From positions 523 to 64,522 of the forward strand of contig JAZQGY010000015.1 of assembly GCA_045540295.1 (NCBI GenBank): DNA of 64,000 nt. Direction: 5' to 3'. This DNA comes from Clostridia bacterium (GTDB taxonomy: Bacteria; Bacillota; Clostridia; UMGS1840). Of this stretch, positions 23,613 through 63,524 are shown piece by piece. Every line of letters begins with the position of its first letter. Within the stretch, counting starts at the first letter, position 1. The notes under the pieces were generated by a model. It worked only from the letters and a program-made list of their open reading frames with translations, did not search any database and was not told the origin of the DNA. The position numbers were made by a program, and so were the translations under genes.

Positions 23613-25127
23613 TTACAGGTCTTTTTCCTGTTCTTCCTGAATATCGGGGAACACAGACAGCATAGGTTTTACATCTTTCCCTTTTAACCGTCTGTCCACA
23701 TAGTTTCTGGTAATTTTGATAACCAATCCGGATAATGCCAGCACACCAATTAAGTTGGGCACCATCATTAAGCCGTTAAAGGTGTCGGAAATATCCCAAG
23801 CTAAGGAGGAGGTGAGCAGAGCACCTGCCATAATGGTTGCTAAATGAAGCAGCTTATAAATCAGTTTGGTTTTTTCACCGAATAAGTATTCCCAAGCTTT
23901 GGAGCCGTAATGATCCCACCCTAACACAGTGGTGAATGCAAACAGTAAAATGGCGATAGCAATAAACTGTTCCCCAAGCACACCAAATACGCCTGAGAAA
24001 GCTTTTGCCACTAAGGTTGCATCGGTAGTGCCTGCTGCTAAGGCACCGGTGTCTAAGTTAATCATACCGGAGGTTAATACCACCAGTGCGGTCATGGTAC
24101 AAACAATCATGGTATCTGCAAACACTTCAAAAATACCCCAAAGGCCCTGTCGAACAGGTTCCTTTACGTTGGAGTTACTGTGCACCATTACAGAAGAACC
24201 AAGACCTGCTTCGTTGGAGAATACGCCACGTTTACAACCCTGGGTTACAATATCCTTCACCACAATACCGCCAACGCCGCCCAATGCTGCAGGCACTGTG
24301 AACGCATAGCGGAAAATAGAAGCAAATGCAGCTCCGATTAACTGATAGTTGCAAGCAATTACCACAATACTTCCGCCTACAAATAAAACCACCATAAAAG
24401 GAACCACTTTTTCTGCAAATGAAGCAATTCTCTTTAACCCGCCGACAATGATTAACGCAGCAATCACCAAAAGAACAATACCAACAATCAAATGATAAAC
24501 GGAAACGCCGGGATAAAGCAGCTGAGAGGACAATGCAGGAATATCAAATGCAGAAACTACATTGACAACAATTTTGTTGATCTGCCCCATAGCTCCAATC
24601 CCAAAGGATGCCAAAATGGCGAAAATGCTAAATAAAATCGCTAAGATTTTACCAATCCACTTGCAGCCTTTCATCTTGCCAAGACCGTCCTCTAAGTAGT
24701 ACATGGCACCGCCGGACCATTCGCCTTCTTTATTTTTTCTGCGGAAGAAAATTCCTAACACATTTTCGGAGTAGTTCGTCATCATCCCGAAAAATGCTGC
24801 AATCCACATCCAAAACACTGCTCCGGGACCCCCTGCAACAATTGCAGTGGCAACCCCCGCAATGTTACCAACACCAATGGTGGCAGCCAAAGCAGTGCAA
24901 AGTGCCTGGAACTGAGAAATGGATTTTCCTTTTACCTTCCCGGAAACATCTTTTGTGAACAGTTTTCCTAAGGTTTCGGAAAACCAGTGTTTGATATGAG
25001 TAATCTGAAATACGCCGGTAATTACGGTAGTTACAACACCGGTGAGAAGCAAAAGATATAACCCTTTGCCCCAGACGAAACTGTTAATTTCGCCGTTAAA
25101 CCAAGTAAGCCAATTGAAAAAATCCAT
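23613..25127 (-). CDS. Alanine/glycine:cation symporter (AGCS family)
   Basis: SQFQALCTALAATIGVGNIAGVA signature. Start at ATG 25127, behind GGAAGGG; the track ORF starts at GTG 25151. It is preceded by a glycine riboswitch. Confidence 0.85.
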   Translation of the reverse strand: MDFFNWLTWFNGEINSFVWGKGLYLLLLTGVVTTVITGVFQITHIKHWFSETLGKLFTKDVSGKVKGKSISQFQALCTALAATIGVGNIAGVATAIVAGGPGAVFWMWIAAFFGMMTNYSENVLGIFFRRKNKEGEWSGGAMYYLEDGLGKMKGCKWIGKILAILFSIFAILASFGIGAMGQINKIVVNVVSAFDIPALSSQLLYPGVSVYHLIVGIVLLVIAALIIVGGLKRIASFAEKVVPFMVVLFVGGSIVVIACNYQLIGAAFASIFRYAFTVPAALGGVGGIVVKDIVTQGCKRGVFSNEAGLGSSVMVHSNSNVKEPVRQGLWGIFEVFADTMIVCTMTALVVLTSGMINLDTGALAAGTTDATLVAKAFSGVFGVLGEQFIAIAILLFAFTTVLGWDHYGSKAWEYLFGEKTKLIYKLLHLATIMAGALLTSSLAWDISDTFNGLMMVPNLIGVLALSGLVIKITRNYVDRRLKGKDVKPMLSVFPDIQEEQEKDL

Positions 25128-25169
25128 GTTTTTTCCCTTCCTTTTTTTCACAAAATAATAAAAATATAT

Positions 25170-25244: not shown

Positions 25245-25436
25245 TGACTGTTTCTCCGTCCTTTTGCCTGAGAGATTAGCCCACATGGGGCTTTACACCT
25301 TCGGCATCCTTAATCTTTTCCTGATTTTCTTCGGGAAAAGGGACTTCTCCGGAGCGCTATCCGTTTGCAGTCTTTGCTAAAAGCGCCTGAGAGCATTACT
25401 CCTTCGGCAAGGCATTCGCCTTTCTCCTGCATCCTT
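25245..25436 (-). promoter_or_regulatory. Tandem glycine riboswitch
   Basis: Minus sense: GCAGGAGAAAGGCGAATGCCTTGCCGAAGGAGTAATGCTCTCAGGCGCTTTTAGC...CTCCGGAGAAGTCC...GATGCCGAAGGTGTAAAG...CTCTCAGGCAAAAGGACGGAG. That is two GGAGA..CCGAAGG..CTCTCAGGC..A aptamers. Confidence 0.88.
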
Positions 25437-25467
25437 CACTTAGCACAATATGCATTTGTCTTCGGGC

Positions 25468-25539: not shown

Positions 25540-26403
25540 TTATTCCTTGGTTAATTCCTTGATTTCCTGAGAATCCTGCTCGTCATGAACCACTGCCTGA
25601 CGGATAATTTTCACGTCTTTTTTATGGTAAGTGCCAACTGCCTCCGTGTCGGAAGAAACGGCACGAAGCATCCCGGTGATTACATTCACATCAATGACGG
25701 TACCTTCACCGCCACCGGGTAATTTCACGATGGAGCCGTGACGGGGAGTATCCTTCCACATATCCTCATAAGATGCCTGCTCATAGTTTAAGCAACACAT
25801 CAGCCTTCCGCAGGCACCTGAAATTTTGGTGGGATTTAAGGATAAATTCTGGTCTTTTGCCATTTTAATGGAAACGGGCTTAAACTCACACAAGAAGGTG
25901 GAGCAACAGCACTGCCGTCCGCAAGGCCCAAAGCATTTTAGCATTTTAGCTTCGTCACGGACACCAATCTGACGCAGTTCGATACGGGTACGGAACACGC
26001 TGGCTAAATCTTTTACCAATTCACGGAAGTCCACTCTGCCGTCTGCAGAGAAATAGAACAGCACTTTGCTTCGATCAAAAGTGTATTCCACTTCCAAAAG
26101 ATTCATTTCCAGACCGTGTTTTTTAATTTTTTCCAACGCAATACCGAAGGCTTTCTGCTCTTTTTCCTTGTTTTCTGCCAGTTGCTTAGCATCCTCTTCG
26201 GTGGCAATCCGGATAACGGGTTTTAAGGGCGGAACCAAGTCTTCCTCAGGAACCATGGAGTTTGGGCGAACAACTTTTCCGTATTCCAAACCGCGGGCGG
26301 TTTCCACAATGACGGAATCCTCTGCCGTTACGGTAAGACCGTTTGGGTCAAAGTAGTAAACCTTGCCAAAATCCTTAAACTTTACGCTGATTACTTCTAT
26401 CAT
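25540..26403 (-). CDS. ricT: PSP1-domain protein YaaT/RicT (stage 0 sporulation)
   Basis: VISVKFKDFGKVYYFD and the Cys cluster CGRQCCCSTFL..CGRLMCCLNYE. Confidence 0.88.
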   Translation of the reverse strand: MIEVISVKFKDFGKVYYFDPNGLTVTAEDSVIVETARGLEYGKVVRPNSMVPEEDLVPPLKPVIRIATEEDAKQLAENKEKEQKAFGIALEKIKKHGLEMNLLEVEYTFDRSKVLFYFSADGRVDFRELVKDLASVFRTRIELRQIGVRDEAKMLKCFGPCGRQCCCSTFLCEFKPVSIKMAKDQNLSLNPTKISGACGRLMCCLNYEQASYEDMWKDTPRHGSIVKLPGGGEGTVIDVNVITGMLRAVSSDTEAVGTYHKKDVKIIRQAVVHDEQDSQEIKELTKE

Positions 26404-26406
26404 AGG

Positions 26407-27360
26407 CTAAAAAATCCTTTCTTCATTCAAATGGGCTTTGATGGCAAGCAATGTTCCCAGTACCGAAACGGCATAGTTTCCGTTTTGGGCAAGTGCTTTT
26501 GCCAGACGGGTGATTTCTTCATATAAAGCGGAGGCCTCTGCCAGACTGATTTTTGGCGTTTCCTCCCAGTCAGTATTTTTTCGGAGGGTTTTGTCCTCTA
26601 AAGAAGCATCGTAGATCAGGCTGGCAAAAACATCCAGCACTCTTGAAACTTCCTTTTCGTAAGTGTGAAAATCACGGTACAGGCGCACCACATCCTTGGC
26701 AGTGCGGTTTTTTAGGAGCAGTCCCCCATCCTGCAAAATGGTCTGACGCATGGTTTTGTAGTCCTCCGAACCGGCAAGAGACATTGCTTCGGTGAGGGAC
26801 CCTTTGGAAAGCGTGAGAATTTCCTCCGTGGGAACGGGTAACCGATGTTTCTCAAAATATTCTTTCAATTCCTTGGGCGTTAACTCGGGGCAACGAATTT
26901 TTACCCCACGGGACAAAATGGTGGGAAGAAGGCTCGCAAGGGAATTGGTCACCAATAAAATCACCGCATACTGAGGCGGTTCTTCAAACACTTTTAAAAG
27001 AGCATTTTGAGCACCCGCCGTCATTTTTTCGGCGTCTTTGATGAGATAAATTTTTTTGTGAAAATGAAACGGTTTTAAATAAATTTCAGTAGTCAATTCC
27101 CGAATCTGATTCACAGAAATCGAACGCTCACCTTCTAAAATATGAATATCCGAGGTGGAGTAAAACTGTTTGCAGGCAGAACAAACCCCGCAGGCCGTAC
27201 GGTTTTCACAAACAATGGCCTTGGCAAATTCCAGTGCCAGCGTGGTTTTGCCCACACCGTCGATGCCATGAAAAATATATGCATGGCTCAGCTTTCCCGT
27301 TTGAATTGCATTTTGCAATAGCCTTTTGGGAAGGGTTTGCCCGATTACTGCATCAAACAT
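26407..27360 (-). CDS. holB: DNA polymerase III subunit delta'
   Basis: HAYIFHGIDGVGKTT, zinc module CGVCSACKQ, and SRGV for the SRC-type motif. Confidence 0.85.
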   Translation of the reverse strand: MFDAVIGQTLPKRLLQNAIQTGKLSHAYIFHGIDGVGKTTLALEFAKAIVCENRTACGVCSACKQFYSTSDIHILEGERSISVNQIRELTTEIYLKPFHFHKKIYLIKDAEKMTAGAQNALLKVFEEPPQYAVILLVTNSLASLLPTILSRGVKIRCPELTPKELKEYFEKHRLPVPTEEILTLSKGSLTEAMSLAGSEDYKTMRQTILQDGGLLLKNRTAKDVVRLYRDFHTYEKEVSRVLDVFASLIYDASLEDKTLRKNTDWEETPKISLAEASALYEEITRLAKALAQNGNYAVSVLGTLLAIKAHLNEERIF

Positions 27361-27370
27361 TATTTTTTAA

Positions 27371-27560
27371 TCCTCGTCTTTCTTAGGATAATCGAAATTC
27401 TGATGTGTTCGTCTCTCTTAAAAACGGCTCTTCCAGAAGAATTTTGATCCTCGTCTTTCTTAAGGTAATCGAAATTCTGATGCGTTCGTCTCTCTTAAAA
27501 ACAGCTCTTCCAAAAGAATTTTGATCCTCGTCTTTCTTAGGATAATCAAAATTCTGAAAA
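27371..27560 (-). repeat. 2.4 tandem copies of a 77-bp unit forming the holB leader
   Basis: Unit starts at 27371, 27448 and 27525. Minus-sense unit: CAGAATTTCGATTATCCTAAGAAAGACGAGGATCAAAATTCTTTTGGAAGAGCTGTTTTTAAGAGAGACGAACGCAT. Confidence 0.85.
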
Positions 27561-27655
27561 CACCTCATCCGTCAAAACCTACGGTTTTGCCACCTTCCCC
27601 TCAAGGGGAAGGCGAAAAAGTGTTGCTTTTTTGCGGTCTGTGTGCTTTTACAAGC
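27561..27655 (-). repeat. R3+R2 composite (stop-proximal module plus hairpin/GATGAGGTG module) immediately 3' of ybeY
   Basis: Minus sense: GGCTTGTAAAAGCACACAGACCGCAAAAAAGCAACACTTTTTCGCCTTCCCCTTGAGGGGAAGGTGGCAAAACCGTAGGTTTTGACGGATGAGGTG. A near-identical copy lies at 57298-57394. Confidence 0.85.
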
Positions 27656-28136
27656 CGTCCGCAACCTGCGAGAGAATCTCTTTTTCACGACCTCGCATCA
27701 CAACCTTATCCTCCTCCACCATATGGTCATAACCAAATAAATGGAGTAAGCCGTGAAGGGTTAAATAGCATAATTCCCGCTGGTAGGTGTGACCGTATTC
27801 CTCTGCCTGGGACGCAATTTTCTCATGGGAAAGCATTAAATCCCCCAGCACCACCAAACCGGTCTCGGGATCGTAATCGTATTCTTGCAGCTCTTCTGCC
27901 AGAACTTCAGGTTCTTGATAAAATAACATGGGAAAAGACAACACATCAGTAGGCTTATCAATGTCTCGTTGCTCACGGTTAATCTGACGGATGGTTTCAT
28001 TATCCGTCACCGTGACGGTTAAAAGAACCTCAAATTCGGGATTTATAATGTCCAGACACCGATTTAAAAATGCGGTCAGTTCTTCTTCTTGGGAGAACAC
28101 GTCCTCCACTTCGTTATAAAACTCTATTTTATGCAT
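27648..28136 (-). CDS. ybeY: rRNA maturation RNase YbeY
   Basis: HGLLHLFGYDH metal motif. Start at ATG 28136; the track extension would overlap degV. Confidence 0.88.
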   Translation of the reverse strand: MHKIEFYNEVEDVFSQEEELTAFLNRCLDIINPEFEVLLTVTVTDNETIRQINREQRDIDKPTDVLSFPMLFYQEPEVLAEELQEYDYDPETGLVVLGDLMLSHEKIASQAEEYGHTYQRELCYLTLHGLLHLFGYDHMVEEDKVVMRGREKEILSQVADGL

Positions 28137-30965: not shown

Positions 30966-30977
30966 TCGTTCTCTTGC

Positions 30978-31084
30978 GGCTTGACAAAAGGCGCAGAACC
31001 GTTAAACCTCATCACTCGGTAGGCCTTCGGATGACCCCTGTGGGTTCGGTTTTCCAATTCTGCATCCTTTTCTCTGCACCTTAC
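30978..31084 (+). repeat. R1 modular 3'UTR element (copy with the compensated AAAAGG/CCTTTT arms)
   Basis: GGCTTGACAAAAGGCGCAGAAC..AACCTCATCACTCGG..CTTCGG..GACCCCtgtGGGTT..ATTCTGCATCCTTTTCTCTGCACCTTAC. A terminator, AGGCAT..ATGCCTTTT, follows. Confidence 0.8.
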
Positions 31085-31186
31085 ATTTTTGTATGATATA
31101 GAAGGCATGGGATTTCCTATGCCTTTTCTTTTTTAGATAGATGTTCTTTTTCTTTGTTGCCAAAGAAAAGAATTTTTTAAAAATTC

Positions 31187-38444: not shown

Positions 38445-38668
38445 CGACTTTGGATAGTGCCATACCAAAAATAATGGCGAGGTACTACCTATAAAGCTTC
38501 TGTATTCTTCGGATAGTGCCATACCAAAAACAACGGCGAGATACTGTGTATAAAGTTTTCTCAATCTTCAGATAGTGCCATACCAAAATAAAGGCGAGGT
38601 ACTACCTATAAAGTTTTCTCAATCTTCGGATAGTGCCATACCAAAAAAGTGGTATACCAAAAAAAGTC
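38445..38668 (+). repeat. Origin array U: 3.5 tandem units of 58-59 bp upstream of dnaA
   Basis: The core GGATAGTGCCATACCAAAAA starts at 38452, 38511, 38570 and 38628. The second half of each unit is GGCGAGGTACTACCTATAAAG. Confidence 0.88.
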
Positions 38669-38825: not shown

Positions 38826-40145
38826 TTGTTTAGTGTATCAGAACTCTACGAAAATGTAGTAGACATAATAAAAAGCGAAATTTCCCCGGTAGCATACAGC
38901 ACCTGGTTTTCCTCTGTTACCCCGGAAAAAATTGAAAACAACATCTTTTATTTCCGTGTTCCCATTGAATATACTCGCGATATGATTGAAAGAAAATACT
39001 CTGAACTGTTAAAAACTGCGGTGGTAACTGCATCTCAGGGACAGATTGCCGATTTTTCGTTCCTGGTGGACGACAGAAGAAACACTCCTTCTGTGTTAGA
39101 CCGGTTCTCCAATACCCAGGATGAAGTATCCACCCTAAACAAAAAATATACTTTCCAGAATTTTGTCATTGGCGAATCCAACCGTTTTGCCCATGCAGCA
39201 GCCATTGCTGTGGCAGAAAGTCCGGCAGAAAATTATAATCCTTTATTTATATACGGCGGTGTTGGTCTGGGAAAAACCCATTTGTTACATGCAATCGGTA
39301 ACCGAATTAAAGAAAACGATCCTACAAAAAAAGTGTTATACTTAACTTCAGAATCCTTCACCAATGAATTTATTGATTCCATTAAATCCGGTCAGAATAC
39401 CGCATTCCGTGATAAACTTCGCAACATTGATGTATTGATGGTAGACGACATTCAGTTTATTGGCGGAAAAGAAGGGACTCAGGAAGAATTTTTCCATACC
39501 TTCAACCATTTATATCAGAACGATAAACAGATTGTGTTATCCTCTGACCGTCCACCAAAAGATATCAGAACGTTGGAAGAAAGACTTCGAACCCGTTTTG
39601 AAGCAGGCTTGATGTGTGACATTAATGCTCCTGACTTAGAAACCAGAATTGCAATTTTAAAGAAAAAAACAGAAGAAGAAAATTTCCCTATTGACGATGA
39701 AATCATCCAGTTTATTGCATCTAAAATCAGATCTAATGTTCGTGAGCTGGAAGGAATCTTCACCCGTCTGGTTGCCTTAACAAAGCTTTCTAAAAAAGAA
39801 ATTACCAAAGAATTGGCAGAAGATGTGATCAAGGTCATCATTGCAGATTCTAAAAAGGCAAAACCCGGCATTGAAACGGTAATGGTGGAAACTGCAGGTT
39901 ACTTTAATATTGATCCACAGCTTTTAAAATCATCTTCCAAAAAGAAAGAAATCGTAAAAGCACGACAGGTGGCAATGTTTTTGGCAAGAGAAGTGCTGGA
40001 AATGAGTACCACCAAAATCGGTGAAGAATTTGAAAGAGACCATTCCACCGTGATGTATTCCATTGAAAAAATTAAAGAAACCCGTCAGACAGACGCTTAT
40101 ATTGATACCATTATTGAGGAAATCACCGGCCTCTTAGAAGATTAA
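38826..40145 (+). CDS. dnaA: Chromosomal replication initiator protein DnaA
   Basis: GGVGLGKTHLLHAIGN Walker A, a box VII-type arginine region, and the C-terminal DNA-binding domain DHSTVMYSIEKI. TTG start. Confidence 0.95.
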   Translation: MFSVSELYENVVDIIKSEISPVAYSTWFSSVTPEKIENNIFYFRVPIEYTRDMIERKYSELLKTAVVTASQGQIADFSFLVDDRRNTPSVLDRFSNTQDEVSTLNKKYTFQNFVIGESNRFAHAAAIAVAESPAENYNPLFIYGGVGLGKTHLLHAIGNRIKENDPTKKVLYLTSESFTNEFIDSIKSGQNTAFRDKLRNIDVLMVDDIQFIGGKEGTQEEFFHTFNHLYQNDKQIVLSSDRPPKDIRTLEERLRTRFEAGLMCDINAPDLETRIAILKKKTEEENFPIDDEIIQFIASKIRSNVRELEGIFTRLVALTKLSKKEITKELAEDVIKVIIADSKKAKPGIETVMVETAGYFNIDPQLLKSSSKKKEIVKARQVAMFLAREVLEMSTTKIGEEFERDHSTVMYSIEKIKETRQTDAYIDTIIEEITGLLED

Positions 40146-40435
40146 TTTTTTTAGTATAACACTATTATAAGATAGCAATAACTTAAAAATTTGTTTTTCT
40201 ATTATTTGATACCCTCTTTTTTAGTATAACACTATTATGAAATAGCAGAAACTTAATAATTTATTTTTCTATTATCTGATACCCTCTTTTTGGGATAACA
40301 CTATTATGAGATAGCAAAAACTTAAAAGAAATTTTTCGATTCATTGTTACCTTTTTTGGGATAACTCTTTTATAAGATTGTATGAATTTGAAAAATAATA
40401 CTTCTACTATTTGATACCCTCTATCATACTTTTGT
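40146..40435 (-). repeat. Origin array M: 4 tandem units (70/70/66 bp), inverted relative to U and D
   Basis: Units start at 40152, 40222, 40292 and 40358. The reverse complement of a unit, ATAATAGTGTTATACTAAAAAA, aligns with GGATAGTGCCATACCAAAAA of U. Units end in TTGATACCCTC. Confidence 0.8.
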
Positions 40436-40969: not shown

Positions 40970-41180
40970 ACAATCTTCGGATAATGTCATACTAAAAAAA
41001 TGCGAGGTACTATCTATCAAGTTTCTATATCCTTTGGATAGAGCCATACTAAAAAAAATGCGTGGTACTATCTATAAAGCTTCTGTATCCTTTGGATAGA
41101 GCCATACCAAAAAATATTTGCGAGACAATATTTTATTAATTGTACTATTTTAGAATAGTGCTATACCAAAAAAAGAGGAT
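40970..41180 (+). repeat. Origin array D: 3.5 tandem units of 57-59 bp upstream of dnaN (same family and orientation as U)
   Basis: Cores are GGATAATGTCATACTAAAAAAA at 40979, GGATAGAGCCATACTAAAAAAAA at 41036, GGATAGAGCCATACCAAAAAA at 41094, and GAATAGTGCTATACCAAAAAAA at 41153. Confidence 0.88.
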
Positions 41181-41262
41181 CAAATTATTTTGATACTTAT
41201 AAACCTATGATAGACGGATGTCTTACAATTTTGATAAACCTAAGAAAGACGAGGATTAAAAA

Positions 41263-42357
41263 ATGAAGTTTAGTTTTTTAAAAGAAGTGTTTTTGGAAAA
41301 TTTATCCACCGTGTTAAAAGCGGTATCCCCCAAAGCAACCGTTCCTCAGTTGGAAGGGGTATACATTTTAGCTCGCGGTAATATGATTACCTTAATCGGT
41401 AACAACACAGAAATTGCCATCAAAGCCCGTTTTGAAGCAGATGTGGAAGAAGAAGGTGTTGGCGTAATCAATGCCAAAAACTTATTTGATATGGTTCGTC
41501 TGATGCCGGAAGGAACGGTTAGTATTTCTGTGGATGAAAAACTGACTACCGTTATCAAATCCGGTGCTACCCGTTATGAAATTGTGGCAATGGATGCAGA
41601 AATGTTCCCTGTGGTGGAAGAATTAAACTGCGAATTCTCTTTAAAAATTACCGAACAGAAGTTAAAAGAGCTGATTAAGAAAACTCTGTTTTCCATTGGT
41701 ACCCAAGATACCAAAATCACTTTTACCGGTGCTTTATTTGAAGTACGAGATAACGAATTGACCGTGGTTACCTTAGACGGTTACCGTATGGCAGTGAGAA
41801 AAGAAGAAATTTATCCTACCGGCGAAAACCGTTCTTATATCATTCCCGGTAAGAGCTTAAATGAACTTTTAAAAATCTTAGCAGACACCAAAGATGACAC
41901 CGTCATCGAATTTGGAGACAGAAAAGCATTGGTAAAACTGGATAACTACGAATTTTATACCAGATTAATTGACGGCGAATTCTTTAATTACGAACAGATT
42001 ATCCCCAAAAACGCAGAAATCAAAGTGAAAGCTGTAACCAAAGAGCTGGTGGAAGCGTTAGAGAGAGCATCTCTTTTAATTACTGCGGATAATAAAGCAC
42101 CTATCCGTATGCACCTAGAAGAGGATAAAATGCATTTCAATACCATTTCCAGAATCGGTCACGCTCAGGATATGATTCACATTGAAAAAACCGGTGACGA
42201 TTTGGAAATCGGCTTTAACCATAAGTTTTTGTTAGATGCCTTAAAAGCCTCTGAAACCGAAGAAATTTTCTTAGATTTCAGCAATAACTTAAGTCCCTGC
42301 ATTTTGCGTGGAGACAGTGACGAATTTTTGTATATGGTGTTACCTGTGCGATTATAG
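41263..42357 (+). CDS. dnaN: DNA polymerase III subunit beta (sliding clamp)
   Basis: 364 aa, a three-domain clamp, with C-terminal FLYMVLPVRL. Confidence 0.92.
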   Translation: MKFSFLKEVFLENLSTVLKAVSPKATVPQLEGVYILARGNMITLIGNNTEIAIKARFEADVEEEGVGVINAKNLFDMVRLMPEGTVSISVDEKLTTVIKSGATRYEIVAMDAEMFPVVEELNCEFSLKITEQKLKELIKKTLFSIGTQDTKITFTGALFEVRDNELTVVTLDGYRMAVRKEEIYPTGENRSYIIPGKSLNELLKILADTKDDTVIEFGDRKALVKLDNYEFYTRLIDGEFFNYEQIIPKNAEIKVKAVTKELVEALERASLLITADNKAPIRMHLEEDKMHFNTISRIGHAQDMIHIEKTGDDLEIGFNHKFLLDALKASETEEIFLDFSNNLSPCILRGDSDEFLYMVLPVRL

Positions 42358-44295: not shown

Positions 44296-44895
44296 ATGAT
44301 AGCAATTATTGATTACGGTGCAGGAAATCTGTTTGGGGTTTCCAATGCGCTAAAACAGTTTACCAAAGAAGTGGAAATCACTTCCGACAAAGATACCATC
44401 CGTGCTGCCGACCATGTGATTTTGCCCGGTGTTGGAAGCTTTGACGATGCTATGGGAAGTATGAACCGCTCCGGTTTAATTGAAACCGTTTATGAAGTGA
44501 TTGATAAAAAAACTCCTTTTTTGGGAATCTGCGTGGGGCTTCAGATGTGCTTTGAGAAATCCGAGGAAGGGGTATTACCCGGTCTTGGCATTTTCCCCGG
44601 TGAAATCAAAAAGTTTCCCGTGGATATCTGCAAAAAGGTACCTCAGATTGGCTGGAATCGGGTAACCACCAAGGAAAGTCCCTTGTTTTTGGACTTGCCT
44701 GATGACTACTTCTATTTTGTGCATAGTTATTATTTACAAGCCAAAAACCGTGATGAAGTGATTGCAACGGCAGAATACGGTATTCCTTTTGACTGCGCTT
44801 ATCAGAGAGATAACGTGTTTTTAACTCAGTTTCATCCCGAAAAAAGCGGCAAAACAGGGCTAAAGCTACTTGAAAATTTTTTAGCAGTGAAATAG
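44296..44895 (+). CDS. hisH: Imidazole glycerol phosphate synthase subunit HisH
   Basis: IDYGAGNL, GICVGLQ (catalytic Cys), VPQIGWN and FHPEKS. Confidence 0.9.
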   Translation: MIAIIDYGAGNLFGVSNALKQFTKEVEITSDKDTIRAADHVILPGVGSFDDAMGSMNRSGLIETVYEVIDKKTPFLGICVGLQMCFEKSEEGVLPGLGIFPGEIKKFPVDICKKVPQIGWNRVTTKESPLFLDLPDDYFYFVHSYYLQAKNRDEVIATAEYGIPFDCAYQRDNVFLTQFHPEKSGKTGLKLLENFLAVK

Positions 44896-45337
44896 CCTTC
44901 TCCTTTGAGGAGAAGGGGGACCGCTTGCGGTGGATGAGGTGTTTTGGAATGAATCCGTTTCAGAATCAAAAACTGACCGACAATGCCAAATCTTTACGAA
45001 AAGAAATGACGAAAGAAGAACGGCATTTATGGTATGATTTTTTAAAAACATTACCCGTTACTGTCCATCGGCAAAAAGTCATTGGAAGCTATATTGTGGA
45101 TTTTTATATCGCATCTGCCAAATTAGTGATTGAACTGGACGGTTCCCAGCATTTTGAAGATGGACATCAACTACGGGATATCAAAAGAGACGAATACCTG
45201 ATGAAATTAGGGATTCGGGTACTTCGATATACTAATTTAGAAATTCAAAAAAACTTTCAAGGTGTTTGTTTGGATATTGGAAACCATTTAGACACCTCAT
45301 CAGTCACTTCGTGACAGCTTCTCCTCAAGGAGAAGCC
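44895..45337 (+). mobile_element. DUF559 gene bounded by hairpin-bearing inverted ends (R2 full-length element)
   Basis: Left end: GCCTTCTCCTTTGAGGAGAAGGGGGACCGCTTGCGGTGGATGAGGTG. Right end: CACCTCATCAGTCACTTCGTGACAGCTTCTCCTCAAGGAGAAGCC. Miniature copies lie at 48548 and 63362. Confidence 0.55.
44949..45314 (+). CDS. DUF559 (Vsr/restriction-endonuclease-like fold) protein
   Basis: LRKEMTKEERHLWYDFLK..FHRQKVIGSYIVDFY..KLVIELDGSQH..RDEYL..G..VLR is typical DUF559. The last 8 codons and the stop lie inside the right terminal module. Confidence 0.8.
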   Translation: MNPFQNQKLTDNAKSLRKEMTKEERHLWYDFLKTLPVTVHRQKVIGSYIVDFYIASAKLVIELDGSQHFEDGHQLRDIKRDEYLMKLGIRVLRYTNLEIQKNFQGVCLDIGNHLDTSSVTS

Positions 45338-45370
45338 TAAAATATGACAGAAAGGAGGTTTTTTGCTATC

Positions 45371-46103: not shown

Positions 46104-47288
46104 ATGCAGTATCACATTTCTGACAATATGAAAACCATGCAGGGTTCTGCCATCCGTGAAATGTTTAAAACCATGGCAAAACCCGGCATTATCTCTTTTG
46201 CGGGAGGAAATCCCTCTCCTTTGACATTCCCTGTGGATGAAATTAAAGAAATCGCAGAGAGAGTACTTACCGAAATGCCTTCTTTATGCTTGCAGTACGG
46301 CATCACCGAAGGCTACACTCCCTTAATTGAGCAGGTGGAAGCCCGCTTAAAAAAACAGGGTATTTATCGGGAAGGATGTAACACGATTATTACCACCGGC
46401 GGTCAGCAGGGATTGGATCTGGCAGTAAAAAGCATCCTAAATCCCGGTGACACCATTATTGTGGAAGAACCCAGCTTTATCGGTGCGTTAAACTCTTTTC
46501 GTACCTACGGTGCCGTGTTAAAGGGCGTTCCCGTGGCAGAAGACGGTATGGATATGGAAAAACTGGAAGAAATTTTAAAAAGTGATGACCGTGTTCGCAT
46601 CATTTATGTGATTCCCACTTTCCAGAATCCCACCGGCATTACCATGAGTTTAGAAAAAAGAAAGAAACTGCTTTCCTTAGCTTATCAGTACAATGTGGTG
46701 ATTTTTGAAGATAACCCCTACGGCGAACTTCGTTTTAAAGGGGAAAACGTGCCCACCTTAAAATCTATGGACGAAGAAAATGCGGTGATGTATTTTGGGT
46801 CCTTCTCCAAAATTTTAGCACCGGGCCTTCGTTTGGGCTTTACCCACGGGATTCCTCAGATTATGGAAAAAATGGTGGTGGCAAAGCAGGTAAACGACGT
46901 GCATACCAACCTGTTAACTCAGGTCATCGCCTCCGAATGGCTGAAAACCTGCGACATTGATACCCACATTCAGAAAGCAAGAGAGCTTTACGGTCATCAG
47001 TGCGACTTAATGCTCTCCGAAATGGACAAACATTTCCCCAAAGAAGTTACCTATACCCGTCCCGAAGGCGGACTTTTCATCTGGTGCACCTTACCCCAAG
47101 GAATGGATGCGGCAGGTATTGTGAAAAAAGGGGTGGAAAAGAATGTTGCCTTTGTGCCCGGTTCCAACTTTATGACCGATATGACAAAACCCTGTAACTG
47201 CTTCCGCTTAAACTATTCCACTATGACCGACGACAAAATTGTGGAAGGTATCGGCATCTTAGCAGACGTGCTGAAAGAAAATTTGTAA
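46104..47288 (+). CDS. PLP-dependent aminotransferase (class I/II, MocR/LysN-like catalytic domain only)
   Basis: GGNPSP, NPTG and SFSKILAPGLRLG (PLP lysine) motifs. Confidence 0.8.
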   Translation: MQYHISDNMKTMQGSAIREMFKTMAKPGIISFAGGNPSPLTFPVDEIKEIAERVLTEMPSLCLQYGITEGYTPLIEQVEARLKKQGIYREGCNTIITTGGQQGLDLAVKSILNPGDTIIVEEPSFIGALNSFRTYGAVLKGVPVAEDGMDMEKLEEILKSDDRVRIIYVIPTFQNPTGITMSLEKRKKLLSLAYQYNVVIFEDNPYGELRFKGENVPTLKSMDEENAVMYFGSFSKILAPGLRLGFTHGIPQIMEKMVVAKQVNDVHTNLLTQVIASEWLKTCDIDTHIQKARELYGHQCDLMLSEMDKHFPKEVTYTRPEGGLFIWCTLPQGMDAAGIVKKGVEKNVAFVPGSNFMTDMTKPCNCFRLNYSTMTDDKIVEGIGILADVLKENL

Positions 47289-47294
47289 TTTGCG

Positions 47295-47400
47295 GTTTGA
47301 TAAATGGCGCATAATTCGTTAATCTCACCGCTCGCAGTACACACAAGTACAGCTTCGGGTTCGATTAGCAAATTCTGCATCCATTTCCCTTCACCTTAGG
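47295..47400 (+). repeat. R1 modular 3'UTR element
   Basis: GTTTGATAAATGGCGCATAAT..AATCTCACCGCTC GCAGTACacacaaGTACAGC TTCGGGT..ATTCTGCATCCATTTCCCTTCACCTTAGG. Confidence 0.85.
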
Positions 47401-47477
47401 TTGGTGGATTGGAAATGCGGTGGATGAGGTGTTTTGTGCCCTTTTTCTGCGCCTTAGAGGTGGCATCACCAAATTAT

Positions 47478-47515
47478 AATTTTGATTATCCTAACAGAGA
47501 CGAGGAGCAAAGAAA
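47478..47515 (+). promoter_or_regulatory. Shared leader module upstream of trpS
   Basis: AATTTTGATTATCCTAACAGAGACGAGGAGCAAAGAAA followed by the ATG. Compare 41227-41262 (dnaN) and 27361-27402 (holB, minus strand). Confidence 0.6.
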
Positions 47516-48523
47516 ATGGAAAATGTAGAACGAAAAAAACGTATCTTTTCGGGCATTCAGCCCTCCGGACATATCACCATCGGAAACTACATCGGCGCCT
47601 TAAAAAACTGGGTAAAATTGCAGGACGAATATGACTGCGCATACTGTGTTGTGGATATGCACGCTATCACCGTCCGTCAGACACCGGCAGACCTCCGGAA
47701 GCGTTGTTTAGACTTTTTAACCCAGTATATTGCCTGCGGATTGGACCCGGAAAAAAATATTATGTTTATGCAGTCCCATAACCCGGCACACGCAGAACTG
47801 GCTTGGGTTCTGATGTGTAATTCCTATATGGGCGAGCTGTCCCGTATGACCCAGTTTAAAGACAAAACCAAAAATAAGCAGAATGAATCCATCGGCGCAG
47901 GACTCTTCACCTATCCTGTGTTAATGGCAGCAGATATTCTTTTATACGGAACCGATTTGGTGCCTGTTGGCATTGACCAGATGCAGCATCTGGAGTTAGC
48001 AAGAGACTTGGCAATCCGTTTTAACAATGTGTATGGCGAAACCTTCACCGTGCCGGAAGGATATTTGTCCAAAACCGGTGCCAAAATTATGAGCCTGCAG
48101 GAACCCACCAAGAAAATGTCCAAGTCTGACGAAAACCCCAAAGCCTATATCACTGTGACAGATGATCCTGATGCGATTACCAAAAAAATCAAGTCTGCGG
48201 TGACCGACAGCGATATGAAAATCTGCCGTGGGGAAGGCAAAGAAGGTATCGAAAACTTAATGAGCATTATGGGTGCCATCACCGGTAAGTCTTTCCAGGA
48301 AATCGAAGCCGAATACCAGGGTAAAAATTACGGTATTTTTAAATCCGATGTGGCAGAATGTGTGGTGGAAGAATTACGCCCCGTCAGAGAAAAATATTTG
48401 CAATTACAGGGCGATAAGGCATATTTGGAACAGATTTATAAATCCGGTGCCGAAAAGGCGTGCTTGGCTTCCCGCAAAATTTTAAGAAAAGTGTATAAAA
48501 AAATCGGGTTTATCGAACGGTAG
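47516..48523 (+). CDS. trpS: Tryptophan--tRNA ligase
   Basis: A GHITIGNY HIGH-type motif and KMSKS. Confidence 0.92.
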   Translation: MENVERKKRIFSGIQPSGHITIGNYIGALKNWVKLQDEYDCAYCVVDMHAITVRQTPADLRKRCLDFLTQYIACGLDPEKNIMFMQSHNPAHAELAWVLMCNSYMGELSRMTQFKDKTKNKQNESIGAGLFTYPVLMAADILLYGTDLVPVGIDQMQHLELARDLAIRFNNVYGETFTVPEGYLSKTGAKIMSLQEPTKKMSKSDENPKAYITVTDDPDAITKKIKSAVTDSDMKICRGEGKEGIENLMSIMGAITGKSFQEIEAEYQGKNYGIFKSDVAECVVEELRPVREKYLQLQGDKAYLEQIYKSGAEKACLASRKILRKVYKKIGFIER

Positions 48524-48547
48524 AGCGGATATCAAAAGAAAAGCAAA

Positions 48548-48686
48548 GCCTTCTCCTTTGAAGAGAAGGGGGACCGCTTGCGGTATTCCAACTTAGATAT
48601 GAAAAGAAATTTTAATGGTGTCTGTCAGCATATTTTATTAGACACCTCATCAGTCACTTCGTGACAGCTTCCCGAAAAGCGGGAAG
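48548..48686 (+). mobile_element. Miniature (139 bp) deletion derivative of the DUF559 element
   Basis: Left end is GCCTTCTCCTTTGAAGAGAAGGGGGACCGCTTGCGGT. The interior, AAATTTTAATGGTGTCTGTCAGCATATTTTATTAGAC, is homologous to the 3' end of the DUF559 ORF. Right end is CACCTCATCAGTCACTTCGTGACAGCTTCCCGAAAAGCGGGAAG. Confidence 0.7.
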
Positions 48687-48727
48687 ACTTTCTCAGAAAA
48701 TTAAATTCCAAAAAAGGAGTGTTTTTT

Positions 48728-49717: not shown

Positions 49718-49720
49718 GAC

Positions 49721-49850
49721 GGCTTGATAAATGGCGCATAATGAATGAACCTCACCGCTCGCCGTACACGCGGTACGGCTTCGGGTAACCACCTTCGGTG
49801 TTCGGTTTCTTCATTCTGCATCCATTTCTCTTCGCCTTGGATAGAGGTTT
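49721..49850 (+). repeat. R1 modular 3'UTR element (best-preserved copy)
   Basis: GGCTTGATAAATGGCGCATAAT gaatg AACCTCACCGCTC GCCGTACacgcgGTACGGC TTCGGGT AACCACCttcGGTGTT CGGTTTCTTC ATTCTGCATCCATTTCTCTTCGCCTTGG. The terminator at 49875-49905 follows. Confidence 0.88.
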
Positions 49851-49874
49851 GGAAAAGAAATATGGAGACCGCAA

Positions 49875-49908: not shown

Positions 49909-50052
49909 AGGTGAAAATTTGTTGACACAAATTTTAATGATAATGCCTTTTGCTATCCGCAAACCTCACCTCTCAGCGTACCAATGTACGCTTTCGGGTA
50001 ACCCCTATCGGGTTCGGTTGATTGATTCTGCGTCCTTTTCCTGCACCTTAGG
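49909..50052 (+). repeat. R1 element, B-subtype (different left arm)
   Basis: AAGGTGAAAATTTGTTGACACAAATTTTAATGATAATGCCTTTTGCTATCCGC AAACCTCACCTCTC AGCGTACcaatGTACGCT TTCGGGT AACCCCtatcGGGTT..ATTCTGCGTCCTTTTCCTGCACCTTAGG. An orphan left arm, GGCTTGATAAATGGCGTACAAT, follows at 50060-50082. Confidence 0.8.
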
Positions 50053-50129
50053 TGGTGGCGGCTTGATAAATGGCGTACAATCTTTCGCAACAAAACAAAC
50101 GGGGCGACACACAGGTCACCCCCTACATA

Positions 50130-50953: not shown

Positions 50954-51250
50954 ACTAAAAAATTCCTTTTCTGTTAAGATGCAAAGCTCTCCCCGACCAG
51001 AAGCTGATGAGGGATTTTGCACTGATGTTTTCATGAATTGTTGCATCGGCAACATGATTTAAATTGCCTTTTCATGCACTTTTTTGCAATTCATAAGCCG
51101 TAAGGCATTCTTCATGAAATCTTTGATTTCAATTCATGCCGAAGGCAATTCATTGATTTCATCCTTAATGAAATCATTCTATCATATGAAATAAAAAAAT
51201 ACAAGTAATTCTCCCAAAAAAGTCGTGTCTTGTTTTGTTACCGTTTCTTT

Positions 51251-51290
51251 TGTCGAAAAGTTTTTCGATTTCTTCTCGGTTCCCGACAGA
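51251..51290 (+). promoter_or_regulatory. Spo0A-box-like sites upstream of spoIIE
   Basis: A perfect 0A box TGTCGAA at 51251-51257, with weaker TTCGATT at 51264 and CCCGACA at 51282. A TGcTATACT -10-like element lies at 51317-51325. Confidence 0.45.
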
Positions 51291-51364
51291 TTGCAACACC
51301 TTTTTCAGAAAACCTGTGCTATACTGATAAAAATTGGAAAAATTTGGAAAAAGGAGTGACTGCC

Positions 51365-53788
51365 GTGAGTCTGATTACCCGAAAAAAAGAATCCGTCAAA
51401 AAAACCGTACCGAAAAAGGAACACCGGGAAATAGAAACAAAAGAAGCAAAAGAACCAAAAGAACCAAAAGAAGCGAAAGAGCCCAAGGAAGCACAAAAAC
51501 TAAAAAAAGCAAACCAATCAAAAGAACAAAACAGACCGAAAAGAATAAAAAACCGAAAGAATTTGTTTTGGCAAGTCTGTGTGGGGTTATTACATTTCTT
51601 TTTATCTTTCTTTTTAAGCCGGACAAGTCTGTTTTTCGGAATGGCACCCTTTGGGGGCGCAATTCTTCTGGCAACAGGCGGAAGTGTTGCCTCCTATGTG
51701 GGAGCAATGCTTGGAAGCTATACGCTTGGGGGTTATGACACCATGGGTGCATTGACCGCTTGTTTTCTTCTAAAACAATTGCTTCGGGCTGAGCGGTGGG
51801 ATCCTCTTCTCATCTTTGTTTCCTTTGGAAGTGTGTTCACAGCGGTGCTTTTGGGGTCTTCTCCCCTCCCTTGGGACGTGATTGTAAAAGTGGTTTCCCT
51901 GCTTTTTACCCTGTCTTCTTATTACATACTAAAAAAGGCATACCGCGCTCAGTTTGTGAAGTCGCCCCAACTGAAATTCACCAAGGATGAAGGATACTGC
52001 TCGTTATTCTTGCTGTTTGCCCTGCTTTCTGGTATTCGCTCGGAAACAGTGGTTTTTTTAGTAAGGTTTCATGACGTCCTCACTTTTTTTGTCATCGCCC
52101 GTGCCGCTTACAGCTTTGGTATCGGCGGAGGTGCCGCAACGGGTGCCATACTGGGGATGCTTTCCGGACGGACAGCAGAGTTTGCCACTCTTTCTATGTC
52201 GGTGTATTCCCTCTTTGGTTTTTTTACGGGAATTTTTTCAAAATTCAATAAGTTTACTGCCTTTCTGGGTTTTCTGTTTTCCTATGTGTTTGCCGCAGCT
52301 TACTTTCCTCAAACGGCGAATCTTGTTTCTTATCAGGATATTTTGTGGGCGGGTATTTTGTTTTTGCTCTCGCCTGACGGATTGATGGAGCCATACTTAG
52401 ACCGCTATCGGGAAGGAACTCCTGTGGCAGACAGAGTTGCCTCGGAGAATCAGATTACCATCGGCAGATTAGACCGTCTTGCCAAGTCCTTTTCCGGATT
52501 ATCTGTGGAAATTGGGCGTCATGAGAAGCAGTTTTGGAATTTATCGTCTGTCAGCGAGCAAACCCTTTATGATTTTGTGGGAGACAGACTTTGCCGTGGC
52601 TGCAGTCTAAAACGTTCCTGCTGGCAGGAGCATTTTTCCGAAACTTCCGAAGGCTTGACGGCAGGAATGAACCGTTTGGTAAAAGTTGGAACTCTCTCCA
52701 AAAAGCATTTGCCCGAAGGTATTCGGAATCGGTGCGTCAGAGGGGACAAGCTCATAGAAACGCTGACGGGCTTTTTTGAAATTTCTCGCCTGAATGCGTT
52801 CTGGAAACACCGTCTTGCGGAAAACACCCACGCTTTTCGGGAACAGTTTTTAGAGCTTTCAGACATTATCTGCCAACTGAAAAAGAATATGGAAACCAAC
52901 CGTTATTTTGACGCTCCCTTATCTGCAGAGCTATACAGTGCATTGGGAAATGAGGGGTATCTGATTCGTGAGGCATCTGTGTTTCACTCGGCAGAGGACC
53001 AATATCTGGTAAAGCTGGGGATGTCACCCTGTAAACATGGGGAAAACTGTTTTCCCACCGTGGAGAAAATCGCTACTGAACTATTGGGCGTTCCCATGAC
53101 GGTTACCGAAGGCGCCTGCGGACGTCGGCTTTGCAATTTGCTTTTAACCGAAGGAGATTTGGGGAACGTGGAACAGCGGATTCAGAGTTTTTCCAAAAAG
53201 GAGGGAGACCCCTCCGGGGATAGTCATATCGTTTCCCGGTTAAGCCGTCATCGCTACTTAATGGCGCTCTCCGACGGAATGGGGAGTGGCGGGAAGGCAA
53301 ACCAAGTGTCTTCCTCAGTTGTTACATTATTAGACGAGATGCTTCGGGCAGGATTTTCGGAGACTTCCGCCTTTTCGATGCTAAACTCCTTTTTAATTGC
53401 CTCTTCTTCAGCATCTGCTACCCTGGATTTTGCCATTGTGGATTTGAAGAAAATGACGGCAACCGTTTTAAAAACCGGTGCTTGCCCCACCTATTTAAAA
53501 CGGGGCGAGGAAGTAATTGCCGTAGGGACAGACTCTCTGCCGGCAGGAATCCGTCCCAAAAAACCGTATCAAAAAACGCTTCACCTATGCCATGGGGATA
53601 TGCTTTTTCTGATTTCCGACGGTGTGGCAGATGCTCTCCCCGAGAAAGATTGGGTATACAGCGCTCTTTGTAAATATCCATCCTCCCACCTTTCGGAACA
53701 TGTGGACTATCTGGCATCGGTGTCTTATGAGGCAAGTCGGGAAACTCCCGATGATATTACGGTGCTGGGACTAAAAATTTTGCCGTAG
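51365..53788 (+). CDS. spoIIE: Stage II sporulation protein E (membrane PP2C phosphatase)
   Basis: A charged KEAKEPKEPKEAKEPKEA N-terminal tract, about 10 TM helices, and a C-terminal PP2C domain (GDSH..MALSDGMGSG..FLISDGV..DDITV). The GTG 51365 start is inferred from AAGGAG; the track ORF begins at 51230. Confidence 0.85.
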   Translation: MSLITRKKESVKKTVPKKEHREIETKEAKEPKEPKEAKEPKEAQKLKKANQSKEQNRPKRIKNRKNLFWQVCVGLLHFFLSFFLSRTSLFFGMAPFGGAILLATGGSVASYVGAMLGSYTLGGYDTMGALTACFLLKQLLRAERWDPLLIFVSFGSVFTAVLLGSSPLPWDVIVKVVSLLFTLSSYYILKKAYRAQFVKSPQLKFTKDEGYCSLFLLFALLSGIRSETVVFLVRFHDVLTFFVIARAAYSFGIGGGAATGAILGMLSGRTAEFATLSMSVYSLFGFFTGIFSKFNKFTAFLGFLFSYVFAAAYFPQTANLVSYQDILWAGILFLLSPDGLMEPYLDRYREGTPVADRVASENQITIGRLDRLAKSFSGLSVEIGRHEKQFWNLSSVSEQTLYDFVGDRLCRGCSLKRSCWQEHFSETSEGLTAGMNRLVKVGTLSKKHLPEGIRNRCVRGDKLIETLTGFFEISRLNAFWKHRLAENTHAFREQFLELSDIICQLKKNMETNRYFDAPLSAELYSALGNEGYLIREASVFHSAEDQYLVKLGMSPCKHGENCFPTVEKIATELLGVPMTVTEGACGRRLCNLLLTEGDLGNVEQRIQSFSKKEGDPSGDSHIVSRLSRHRYLMALSDGMGSGGKANQVSSSVVTLLDEMLRAGFSETSAFSMLNSFLIASSSASATLDFAIVDLKKMTATVLKTGACPTYLKRGEEVIAVGTDSLPAGIRPKKPYQKTLHLCHGDMLFLISDGVADALPEKDWVYSALCKYPSSHLSEHVDYLASVSYEASRETPDDITVLGLKILP

Positions 53789-53849: not shown

Positions 53850-53960
53850 TGAAATGCCTTTTGCTATCCGGAAACCTCACCTCCTAGAGTACCAATGTAC
53901 GCCTTCGGGGAATCCTGCGGTTCGGTTTGGAAATTCTATGCCCTTTTCCTTCACCTTGGA
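53850..53960 (+). repeat. R1 element, B-subtype
   Basis: ATGCCTTTTGCTATCCGG AAACCTCACCTCCT AGAGTACcaatGTACGCC TTCGGGG AATCCtgcGGTT..ATTCTATGCCCTTTTCCTTCACCTTGG. Confidence 0.8.
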
Positions 53961-53965
53961 TTACA

Positions 53966-54006
53966 GAAAAAAAGACTGCAAAGCTTTTGGCTTTTGCAGT
54001 CTTTTT
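53966..54006. terminator. Bidirectional terminator between spoIIE and the ireB-like gene
   Basis: GACTGCAAAGC ttttg GCTTTTGCAGTC, flanked by A- and T-runs. Confidence 0.8.
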
Positions 54007-56335: not shown

Positions 56336-56583
56336 CGGCACACCCCATCGGGTGTTCTTTCCGGCTTCGCCGGATACTCTCCTAAAACTAAGAGAGGACA
56401 AGCTAAAAATTCATCTTTTCGGAGATTTACTTCCCGAAAAGATACCGACAATAAGCCCACAGGGAATCACCCGAGCTGTGCGAGGGTGCAGACTCCCGAA
56501 GCACAGCGGAATGTGTTTTTTTAAAAATTTTGGGAGACAAGGACGAGCAAAATTTTAAAAAAACGGGAATTATATAGAGAGGA

Positions 56584-57394: not shown

Positions 57395-57402
57395 TCATTT
57401 TT

Positions 57403-58036: not shown

Positions 58037-58054
58037 GTGCTTTTTTTGAAAGAA

Positions 58055-63477: not shown

Positions 63478-63524
63478 TATCAGAACAGAGCTTCTCTCCT
63501 ACAATTTTTTCTTCTAAAAAATAC

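Follow-up and report, generated by a model that had tools for sequence, protein, structure and literature searches.

A ribosome-binding leader module shared by holB, dnaN and trpS near the replication origin of an uncultured gut Clostridia bacterium

Results

A common leader at three origin-proximal genes

The stretch of DNA studied here, a 64-kb window from the genome of an uncultured gut Clostridia bacterium, contains a module of 35-40 nt that forms the leader, including the ribosome-binding site, of three genes, holB, dnaN and trpS. All three loci lie within 20 kb around the replication origin oriC, and their synteny is maintained among relatives. The spacers concerned (ybeY-holB, dnaA-dnaN and aminotransferase-trpS) separate co-oriented genes, and the module runs in gene orientation in each of them. 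Copies were located with a 17-mer and a hidden Markov model (HMM), the array with Tandem Repeats Finder (TRF). The name holB follows from the best match, the conserved ybeY-holB-ricT order and the orthologs. The three loci comprise the following features:

27364..27400, minus strand: module copy 1, the ribosome-binding leader of holB (…GAATTTCGATTATCCTAAGAAAGACGAGGATTAAAAAATA-ATG); HMM E = 7e-12, GAGGA 10 nt before the ATG
27440..27477, minus strand: module copy 2, internal to the array, an orphan Shine-Dalgarno sequence; 17-mer and HMM
27517..27554, minus strand: module copy 3, distal; 17-mer and HMM
27365..27557, minus strand: 77-bp minisatellite of 2.5 units (TRF); GAGGA-to-GAGGA spacing 77 and 77 nt
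~27409-27421 and 27486-27497, minus strand: half-modules TTAAGAGAGACGAAC in the holB array; weak HMM matches
26407..27360, minus strand: holB (DNA polymerase III delta'); NCBIfam TIGR00678, 5e-47, under the model's curated cut-off
25540-26403: ricT, next after holB; RicT match 5e-94 (NCBIfam)
38826-40145: dnaA (NCBIfam)
41180..41255, plus strand: full 76-nt unit ahead of dnaN, a spacer with a half-module (41199-41216) and the module
41226..41262, plus strand: module, leader of dnaN; HMM E = 3e-10, GAGGA 7 nt before the ATG
41263-42357, plus strand: dnaN; NCBIfam TIGR00663, 8e-82
47477..47513, plus strand: module, leader of trpS, with the trpS-type core CCTAACAGAGACGAGGAGCAAAGAAA; HMM E = 4e-11
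47516-48523, plus strand: trpS; NCBIfam TIGR00233, 8e-105

The original prediction held that one and the same module precedes the three genes and provides their GAGGA Shine-Dalgarno sequence, and the leader sequences and coordinates that it quoted are correct on re-reading the window. The 17-mer CCTAAGAAAGACGAGGA, with up to three mismatches, has five matches in the window against 0.14 expected, and none of 100 shuffles reaches five. These matches lie at 27371, 27448 and 27525 on the minus strand and at 41239 and 47490 on the plus strand. The HMM, built from the five copies of ~38 nt, recovers its own copies at E = 1e-10 to 1e-12, and the next match in the window has E > 1. All five are either leaders of holB, dnaN and trpS or lie inside the 77-bp array of holB. 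The gene-proximal copies are always in sense orientation and end 7-10 nt 5' of the ATG. Each gene's sole Shine-Dalgarno-like sequence is situated inside its proximal module copy, and the module supplies GAGGA at all three genes. A degenerate version had also been suggested ahead of pyrH (56524-56556), and this assignment fails. The HMM misses it, its gapped local score of 22 is below the chance matches of 27-32 elsewhere in the window, and the sequence sits ~35-70 nt 5' of the likely pyrH start instead of adjoining it. By the HMM and the gapped local scan the pyrH copy is indistinguishable from chance.

Anatomy of the repeat unit

In an alignment of 16 copies from eight genomes (A2), the conserved core reads AATTTYGAT-NAN-CYTAA-S-A-R-AGACGAGGA and is followed by an A-rich spacer of 7-10 nt. 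The core has gene-specific variants, AACAGAG at trpS and AAGAAAG at holB, each of them stable across species. The module is embedded in a larger unit that starts right behind one GAGGA, closes with the next and consists of a spacer of ~43 nt with a degenerate half-module, followed by 34 nt of module. Unit lengths are 77 and 77 nt at holB in the window, 77 nt in JAZNNT, 75, 76 and 78 nt in JAZQKB and 77 nt in Ga0224414; the unit ahead of dnaN in the window has 76 nt and that ahead of trpS in JAFYVF 71 nt. The half-module is TTAAGAGAGACGAAC in the holB array of the window, TTAACAGAGTCGGAT in JAZQKB and CCTATGATAGACGGAT ahead of dnaN. Because the spacer holds such a half-module, the unit looks like an old duplication of an element of ~38 nt.

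The predicted 77-bp tandem repeat ahead of holB is recovered by TRF with 92% matches. Copy 2 of this array is not followed by an ATG; the only candidate start is a TTG 11 nt downstream, which is not conserved among relatives. On the two sides of copy 3 lie the arms of a perfect 10-bp inverted repeat, GAATTTTGAT…ATCAAAATTC, with a fold of -11.4 kcal/mol (z = -1.5). The dnaN unit aligns with the proximal holB unit over 66 nt at 79% identity (pair I2), and an orphan GAGGA (41175-41179) is located directly ahead of it.

Selection on the leader

Comparison between species reveals an unusual constraint on the module. In the final 31 nt of the leader of trpS the window differs from JAZNNT, JAGAKI and JAZUBQ at 0, 1 and 0 positions, while 34%, 50% and 45% of the four-fold sites of trpS are different in the same comparisons. 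Between the window and Ga0224414, 6 of the 40 leader positions of holB are different, against 55% divergence at four-fold sites. Leaders of neighbouring genes are just 5-50% identical in the same species pairs. A near-invariant leader in front of diverged four-fold sites shows that ~30 nt of the module are under purifying selection, far beyond what a Shine-Dalgarno sequence needs. With selection this strong beyond the Shine-Dalgarno sequence, a sequence-specific function is possible. Despite the constraint, the module is dispensable at holB and dnaN in some species. Horizontal transfer of trpS was rejected as a cause of the leader identity: divergence at the four-fold sites stays at 34-50% as far as the ATG, and trpS has diverged at the nucleotide level much like its neighbours, so that a recent transfer is no explanation for the match.

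Distribution among relatives

The exact pattern was scanned on both strands of one genome per species in 185,579 species and gave 18 matches. The true matches are confined to five uncultured 'Clostridia bacterium' gut metagenome-assembled genomes and all lie ahead of holB or trpS; the other matches are chance matches in coding sequence. JAZNNT has the module at holB (two copies) and trpS, JAZQKB at holB (three copies), and JAGAKI, JAZUBQ and JAFYVF at trpS. At pattern stringency there are thus one or two loci per relative genome, compared with three in the window. An exact pattern misses diverged variants, for example the dnaN leader of L051, and two leaders, that of dnaN in JAZNNT and that of trpS in JAZQKB, were judged solely by the absence of an exact pattern match. 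Because diverged variants such as that of L051 escape the exact pattern, the restriction to these genes is firm just at pattern stringency. The HMM found no further copy in ~170 kb comprising the window and the related loci. All 18 matches of a pattern scan of Joint Genome Institute (JGI) metagenomes are apparently unrelated, being mostly coding and of the D-x-L/P-K-K-D-E-E type. An origin from phages or plasmids was likewise discarded, as the module has no BLAST match in either and the pattern matches in viral contigs are chance matches in coding sequence.

At the orthologous sites the occupancy varies. The holB site has no units in L041, only the 3' half of a module in L042 and L048, one unit in L037, two module copies (one full unit) in L003, three module copies in the window and 3.5 units in L011. 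Across relatives the GAGGA-to-GAGGA spacing in the holB arrays is 75-78 nt, and in L011 all three array copies share an identical 23-nt core and differ in their spacers. Named by genome, the holB sites with just the 3' half are those of JAZUBQ (GGAAAGACGAGGA) and JAZMUF, where the TAA of the module is the stop codon of ybeY. The sites that lack the module (L041 and L047) are those of JAGAKI, where ybeY abuts holB with a gap of 3 nt, and JAZQUU, which has no units. At dnaN the module is present in the window and in L051 (DnaN 89% identical); it is absent from L043-L046, namely from JAZQKB (L043, DnaN 97% identical) and three relatives at 71-79%. The dnaN leader of L051 joins a trpS-type core to a TTAAAAAAT tail, and the same tail is found at trpS of L014. 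Relatives whose TrpS is at least 94% identical all have the trpS module, and those at 78-82% lack it. L014 carries two module copies at trpS, 71 nt apart. Conservation at dnaN and holB, which had been proposed as a check, is seen in some relatives and is patchy at both genes.

Searches for known signals

A scan that covers sigma-70-like promoters only gave no site on the two strands of 27300-27700 and 47250-47550, and there is no terminator in the holB or trpS spacers. Neither the module nor the trpS leader matches Rfam 15 (T-box, riboswitches, ribosomal protein leaders) at gathering scores or at E <= 1. Several identities were considered and found little support. A DnaA box (TTATNCACA), judged by eye, has its best match in TTATCCTAA with 7/9 positions, and the TTAT part varies between copies (TAAA, TGAA, TTAC). 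CodY box, PyrR site, TRAP (trp RNA-binding attenuation protein) triplets and a sigma-H promoter were set aside on a poor consensus by eye or the lack of an Rfam match, and the same holds for a hammerhead (CUGAUGAG) in a neighbouring repeat. An unusually strong Shine-Dalgarno sequence was ruled out as well: the duplex predicted with the canonical anti-Shine-Dalgarno tail, at -10.3 to -12.3 kcal/mol, falls in the middle of the range that 36 genes of the window span. Mimicry of the 16S tail is marginal, with 17/22 matches to the complement of an assumed pre-16S tail versus 15-16/22 at other sites.

Neighbouring repeats and other elements

The module is surrounded by repeats of other kinds. The sequence GATGAGGTGT had been noted ahead of the module at holB and trpS. 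Its position is right (27560-27569 and 47423-47432), but it is the inner end of a separate double-hairpin repeat; the window has seven exact copies of it, counting both strands. The two elements concerned are:

27560..27656, minus strand: double-hairpin repeat of ~100 nt ending in GGATGAGGTGT, directly after the ybeY stop; not the module
47423..47432, plus strand: GATGAGGTGT; belongs to a half-copy of the double-hairpin repeat family, as its inner end, and is separated by 45 nt from the trpS module downstream

A second double-hairpin copy follows pyrH (57297-57395, plus strand), and the copies are 93-97% identical (pairs I1 and I4). The ~100-nt repeat begins at the stop codons of ybeY and pyrH and gives ybeY its last codons and TAA. 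At 44894-45339, between two double-hairpin end modules, …GGATGAGGTGT and ACACCTCATC…, lies a small DUF559 gene (Vsr-like endonuclease fold, Pfam E = 3.8e-28), whose ATG obtains a Shine-Dalgarno sequence (GAGGTG) from GATGAGGTGT. Both ends of this element also stand back to back without the gene, after trpS (48547-48689) and after carB (63360-63479). The DUF559 locus looks like an autonomous element with derivatives that lack an open reading frame (ORF) and resemble miniature inverted-repeat transposable elements (MITEs). Derivation of the module unit from this element was rejected, as the similarity is not above that of shuffles.

Two families of intergenic repeats of 110-160 nt were found, one at 30977-31103, 47293-47418, 49720-49859, 57553-57676 and 63145-63304 (D5, D6, D10, D12) and the second at 49948-50059, 53859-53967 and 57446-57556 (D8, D13). 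They mostly begin within a few bases of a stop codon and have no Rfam match. The long spacer 57297-58037 is a mosaic of several repeat families. The trpS spacer (47289-47515) consists of repeat fragments and then the module; it holds no T-box (Rfam gathering scores, E <= 1), which is unusual for a Firmicute trpS. Between ybeY and holB several relatives have a palindromic element of ~90 nt (AATGAATAATTGCGGTGG…CCACCATAATTC) with arms rich in GAATGA/TTCATT, situated at ~560-660 in L011, ~2800-2890 in L037 and, in opposite orientation, ~1815-1905 in L041; in L014 it is also found upstream of the duplicated trpS module. The oriC region itself contains minisatellites (38448-38647, 40147-40421 and 40971-41176), namely a 59-bp array of 3.4 copies ahead of dnaA, a 70-bp array of four copies directly after dnaA and a 58-bp array of about four copies ahead of dnaN. 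The 59-bp and 58-bp arrays share the core CTTCGGATAGTGCCATACCAAAAA and form one family; in L043, the closest relative, this region has been rearranged. Two further features of the window are a tandem glycine riboswitch (two aptamers, RF00504) at 25246-25439 on the minus strand, upstream of a sodium:alanine symporter gene (23613-25151), and repeats of 9, 18 and 27 bp (AGAAGCAAA…) at 51433-51561 in the 5' part of a SpoIIE-family gene (51230-53788). If in frame, the AGAAGCAAA repeats are lysine/glutamate-rich.

Discussion

Two readings had been offered for the shared leader, namely a common post-transcriptional control of DNA polymerase III subunits and a repeat that donates a ribosome-binding site. 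We find the first one weakened. L043 has no dnaN copy, although its DnaN is 97% identical and its genome has 3.5 holB units. Several relatives have a holB without the module or with its 3' half only, and trpS, the gene that keeps the module most faithfully, does not encode a polymerase subunit. Moreover, the three genes lie within 20 kb around oriC, so that their physical closeness accounts for this choice of genes no less well than function. One kind of evidence against polymerase III control was sought and not found: in the genomes of the five relatives, at pattern stringency, there are copies only ahead of these genes and none ahead of unrelated ones, and with the module so restricted its promiscuity cannot be held against the idea. 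The donation of a ribosome-binding site fits the anatomy of the repeat, because the copy number is variable, the distribution is patchy and the units are whole GAGGA-to-GAGGA units of 71-78 nt; the absence of promiscuity and the strong selection beyond the Shine-Dalgarno sequence qualify this reading. The module most resembles small repeats that supply expression signals and not a dedicated polymerase switch.

We tentatively favor a clade-specific, selected leader or ribosome-binding cassette that was copied among three origin-proximal genes, was expanded by slippage and acts in cis. Copying between holB, dnaN and trpS would have occurred at the DNA level, via ectopic recombination or gene conversion, and the array would expand and contract by slippage or unequal exchange between units that end in GAGGA. 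On the mRNA the proximal copy would drive initiation in cis, with a split complementarity to the 3' tail of 16S rRNA (AGAAAG..GAGG). The upstream copies are putative orphan Shine-Dalgarno sites that may act as ribosome standby sites or as 5' stabilizers comparable to the stabilizing Shine-Dalgarno sequence (STAB-SD). The module would then not be a dedicated control element of polymerase III. Local ectopic recombination is favored over a polymerase III link because of the clustering at the origin and the mosaic combinations of core and tail. Several points weigh against this cassette model. An ordinary ribosome-binding site needs no 30 or more invariant nucleotides, and a conservation that strong points to an additional specific partner. 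The pairing with the anti-Shine-Dalgarno sequence was modelled on a canonical tail and not on the host's own 16S rRNA. No donor-recipient pair stands out, since the dnaN unit is ~80% identical in the module and ~55% in the spacer to every holB unit, and we infer recombination from the patchy occurrence and the mosaic variants. That holB, dnaN and trpS are co-transcribed with ybeY, dnaA and the aminotransferase gene is an assumption whose single basis is the lack of a sigma-70-like promoter in two spacers, those of holB and trpS.

The additional partner is central to an alternative in which an RNA-binding protein or a small RNA recognizes the ~30-nt module over the Shine-Dalgarno sequence and co-regulates trpS, holB and sometimes dnaN. 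The tandem copies at holB would raise the affinity or form a cooperative or titrating platform. This idea of a translational operator accounts best for the conservation and for the fact that the same three genes recur: at trpS and holB the conservation reaches ~25 nt past the Shine-Dalgarno sequence despite saturated synonymous divergence, the leaders of other genes are not conserved likewise, the variants AACAGAG (trpS) and AAGAAAG (holB) are stably inherited, the array copies of L011 hold their identical 23-nt core among varying spacers, and in every genome examined the module is restricted to these three genes. On the supporting side, too, the motif ACGAGGAU may be loosely similar to a CsrA-type GGA site. 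However, the distribution is patchy: dnaN of a 97% relative has no module, nor does holB of L041 and L047. The analysis yielded no candidate factor, the relatives' genomes contain no complementary copy elsewhere (both strands, pattern stringency), and there is no stable fold, covariation or Rfam match. No rationale is known for tying trpS to polymerase III, and the proximity within 20 kb offers a non-functional alternative. Overall, we regard such an operator as possible but doubtful. Its wider form, a new post-transcriptional regulon in which the protein or small RNA occludes the Shine-Dalgarno sequence and couples the supply of TrpS to clamp and clamp loader, with the array tuning the number of sites, appears unlikely. 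Decidedly unlikely is a non-autonomous mobile element, comparable to a MITE or a mycobacterial interspersed repetitive unit (MIRU), that inserts at start codons with its own Shine-Dalgarno sequence and forms arrays by tandem reinsertion or amplification. Filled and empty orthologous sites exist, the units of 71-78 bp are tandem and gene-oriented between co-oriented genes in a MIRU-like manner (PMC12548453; PMC3184786), internal copies bear a 10-bp inverted repeat, and the host harbors other small, mobile-looking repeats, one with a DUF559 gene. A mobile element hardly accounts for only three target genes, all within 20 kb and recurring in every species. The unit ends show neither a definable target-site duplication nor a terminal inverted repeat; the 10-bp inverted repeat surrounds only internal copies, and no clean duplication emerges when filled sites are set against empty ones. 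Matches in phages, plasmids and viral contigs are lacking, a conserved coupled ORF as in MIRUs is missing, and the orthologous copies are old and conserved instead of recent insertions. The unit scores 20 against the DUF559 element, with a shuffle mean of 18.6.

An RNA switch would act in cis as well, through a UCCU:AGGA hairpin, extended by GAAUUUUGAU:AUCAAAAUUC, that hides the Shine-Dalgarno sequence and opens with temperature or upon ligand binding. The 4-bp UCCU:AGGA pairing is possible in 89% of cells across 16 copies, and the outer stem reaches -8.7 to -11.4 kcal/mol in the internal array copies. However, the gene-proximal copies fold at -2 to -4 kcal/mol with z near 0, the outer stem is paired in just 58% of cells, paired cells amount to 67.0% versus a shuffle mean of 67.0%, double-sided changes number 2 versus 3.4 expected, and Rfam gives no match at E <= 1. 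A search for a hairpin or thermometer that sequesters the Shine-Dalgarno sequence thus yielded no stable, evolutionarily supported pairing (z near 0, covariation equal to shuffles), and we hold such a switch to be very improbable. Equally cis-acting would be translational coupling to a small upstream ORF: a leader peptide (…NFDYPKKDED*) would have the module as its 3' end and, by terminating beside the start codon, pass ribosomes on to the gene. In the window, ORFs do cross the module in a common frame (MSYNFDKPKKDED* ahead of dnaN, MRCF… ahead of holB and trpS) and end 4-7 nt short of the ATG or run into it, and in L042 the TAA of the module is the real stop codon of ybeY. The comparative data disfavor this proposal, as neither start codons nor frames are conserved: L011 and L037 have in-frame stops just upstream and no start codon, the sole upstream ATG of L004 and L017 opens a different frame (judged by eye), and the MRCF ORFs take their ATG from the GATGAGGTGT repeat, which is unrelated. 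Coupling to an upstream ORF hardly deserves credence.

The cassette proposed here shares behavior with several known families of repeats. MIRUs are described, in the accounts cited, as tandem units of 40-100 bp that insert at start codons within operons (Supply et al., 1997; PMC12548453; PMC3184786). In line with that description, the unit falls within 40-100 bp and is tandem with variable copy number (77 bp in 2.5 copies; 0-3.5 units at holB), lies between co-oriented genes in gene orientation adjoining the downstream start codon, and has filled and empty orthologous sites, with downstream expression presumably preserved. In contrast to the module, MIRUs are, according to the same accounts, GC-rich mycobacterial repeats at ~40 loci with a small ORF that overlaps the start codon and so sustains translation; the module occupies three loci, has a Shine-Dalgarno sequence instead of a conserved ORF and has no sequence relationship to MIRUs. 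The REP2 or contact-regulated repeat of Neisseria has 120-150 bp and 23-26 copies and contains a promoter, a ribosome-binding site, an ATG and two stem-loops, and Neisseria genes sharing REP2 are co-regulated (PMC3184786), the kind of arrangement that the original prediction considered for the leader studied here. Like REP2 and the Borrelia repeats IR-A and IR-B, the module is a dispersed repeat directly ahead of several unrelated genes that supplies the ribosome-binding site (PMC3184786). It differs from REP2 in being 35-40 nt long (77 nt as a unit) and tandem, with neither promoter nor stable stem-loop detected. STAB-SD, a Shine-Dalgarno-like stretch within the 5' untranslated region that has no start codon after it and stabilizes mRNA, is established in Firmicutes (Agaisse and Lereclus, 1996; PMC4113751); it is complementary to the 3' end of 16S rRNA and can hold a 30S subunit, thereby blocking RNase J1 (PMC4113751). 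Similarly, the distal module copies pair at -12.3 kcal/mol with the canonical tail and have no conserved start codon downstream. However, STAB-SD is a single short motif (GAAAGGAGG), whereas the module is a conserved 35-nt sequence in a minisatellite, and a stabilizing role would be by analogy. With the pneumococcal BOX element, MITEs and repetitive extragenic palindromic (REP) sequences the module has in common a modular intergenic structure with an internal subunit in variable number, near genes that such elements can modulate (PMC3184786). These families are high-copy, occur in both orientations and possess terminal inverted repeats or stable stem-loops (PMC3184786), whereas the module is low-copy, always sense, always at a start codon and essentially unstructured. 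The module shares behavior with each family, fails at least one defining feature of every one and has no sequence relationship to them.

The module would be a clostridial addition to the repeats that carry expression signals to start codons, such as MIRUs and Neisseria REP2, and it serves three essential genes near the origin. A whole translation-initiation region appears to have passed as a copy from gene to gene, grown into a minisatellite and thereafter been kept near-invariant by selection. Its variable copy number could make the array useful for telling strains of this uncultured gut lineage apart. If the constraint over ~25 nt reflects a trans-acting partner, the module would be a new regulatory motif that links an aminoacyl-tRNA synthetase to the clamp system of the replisome.

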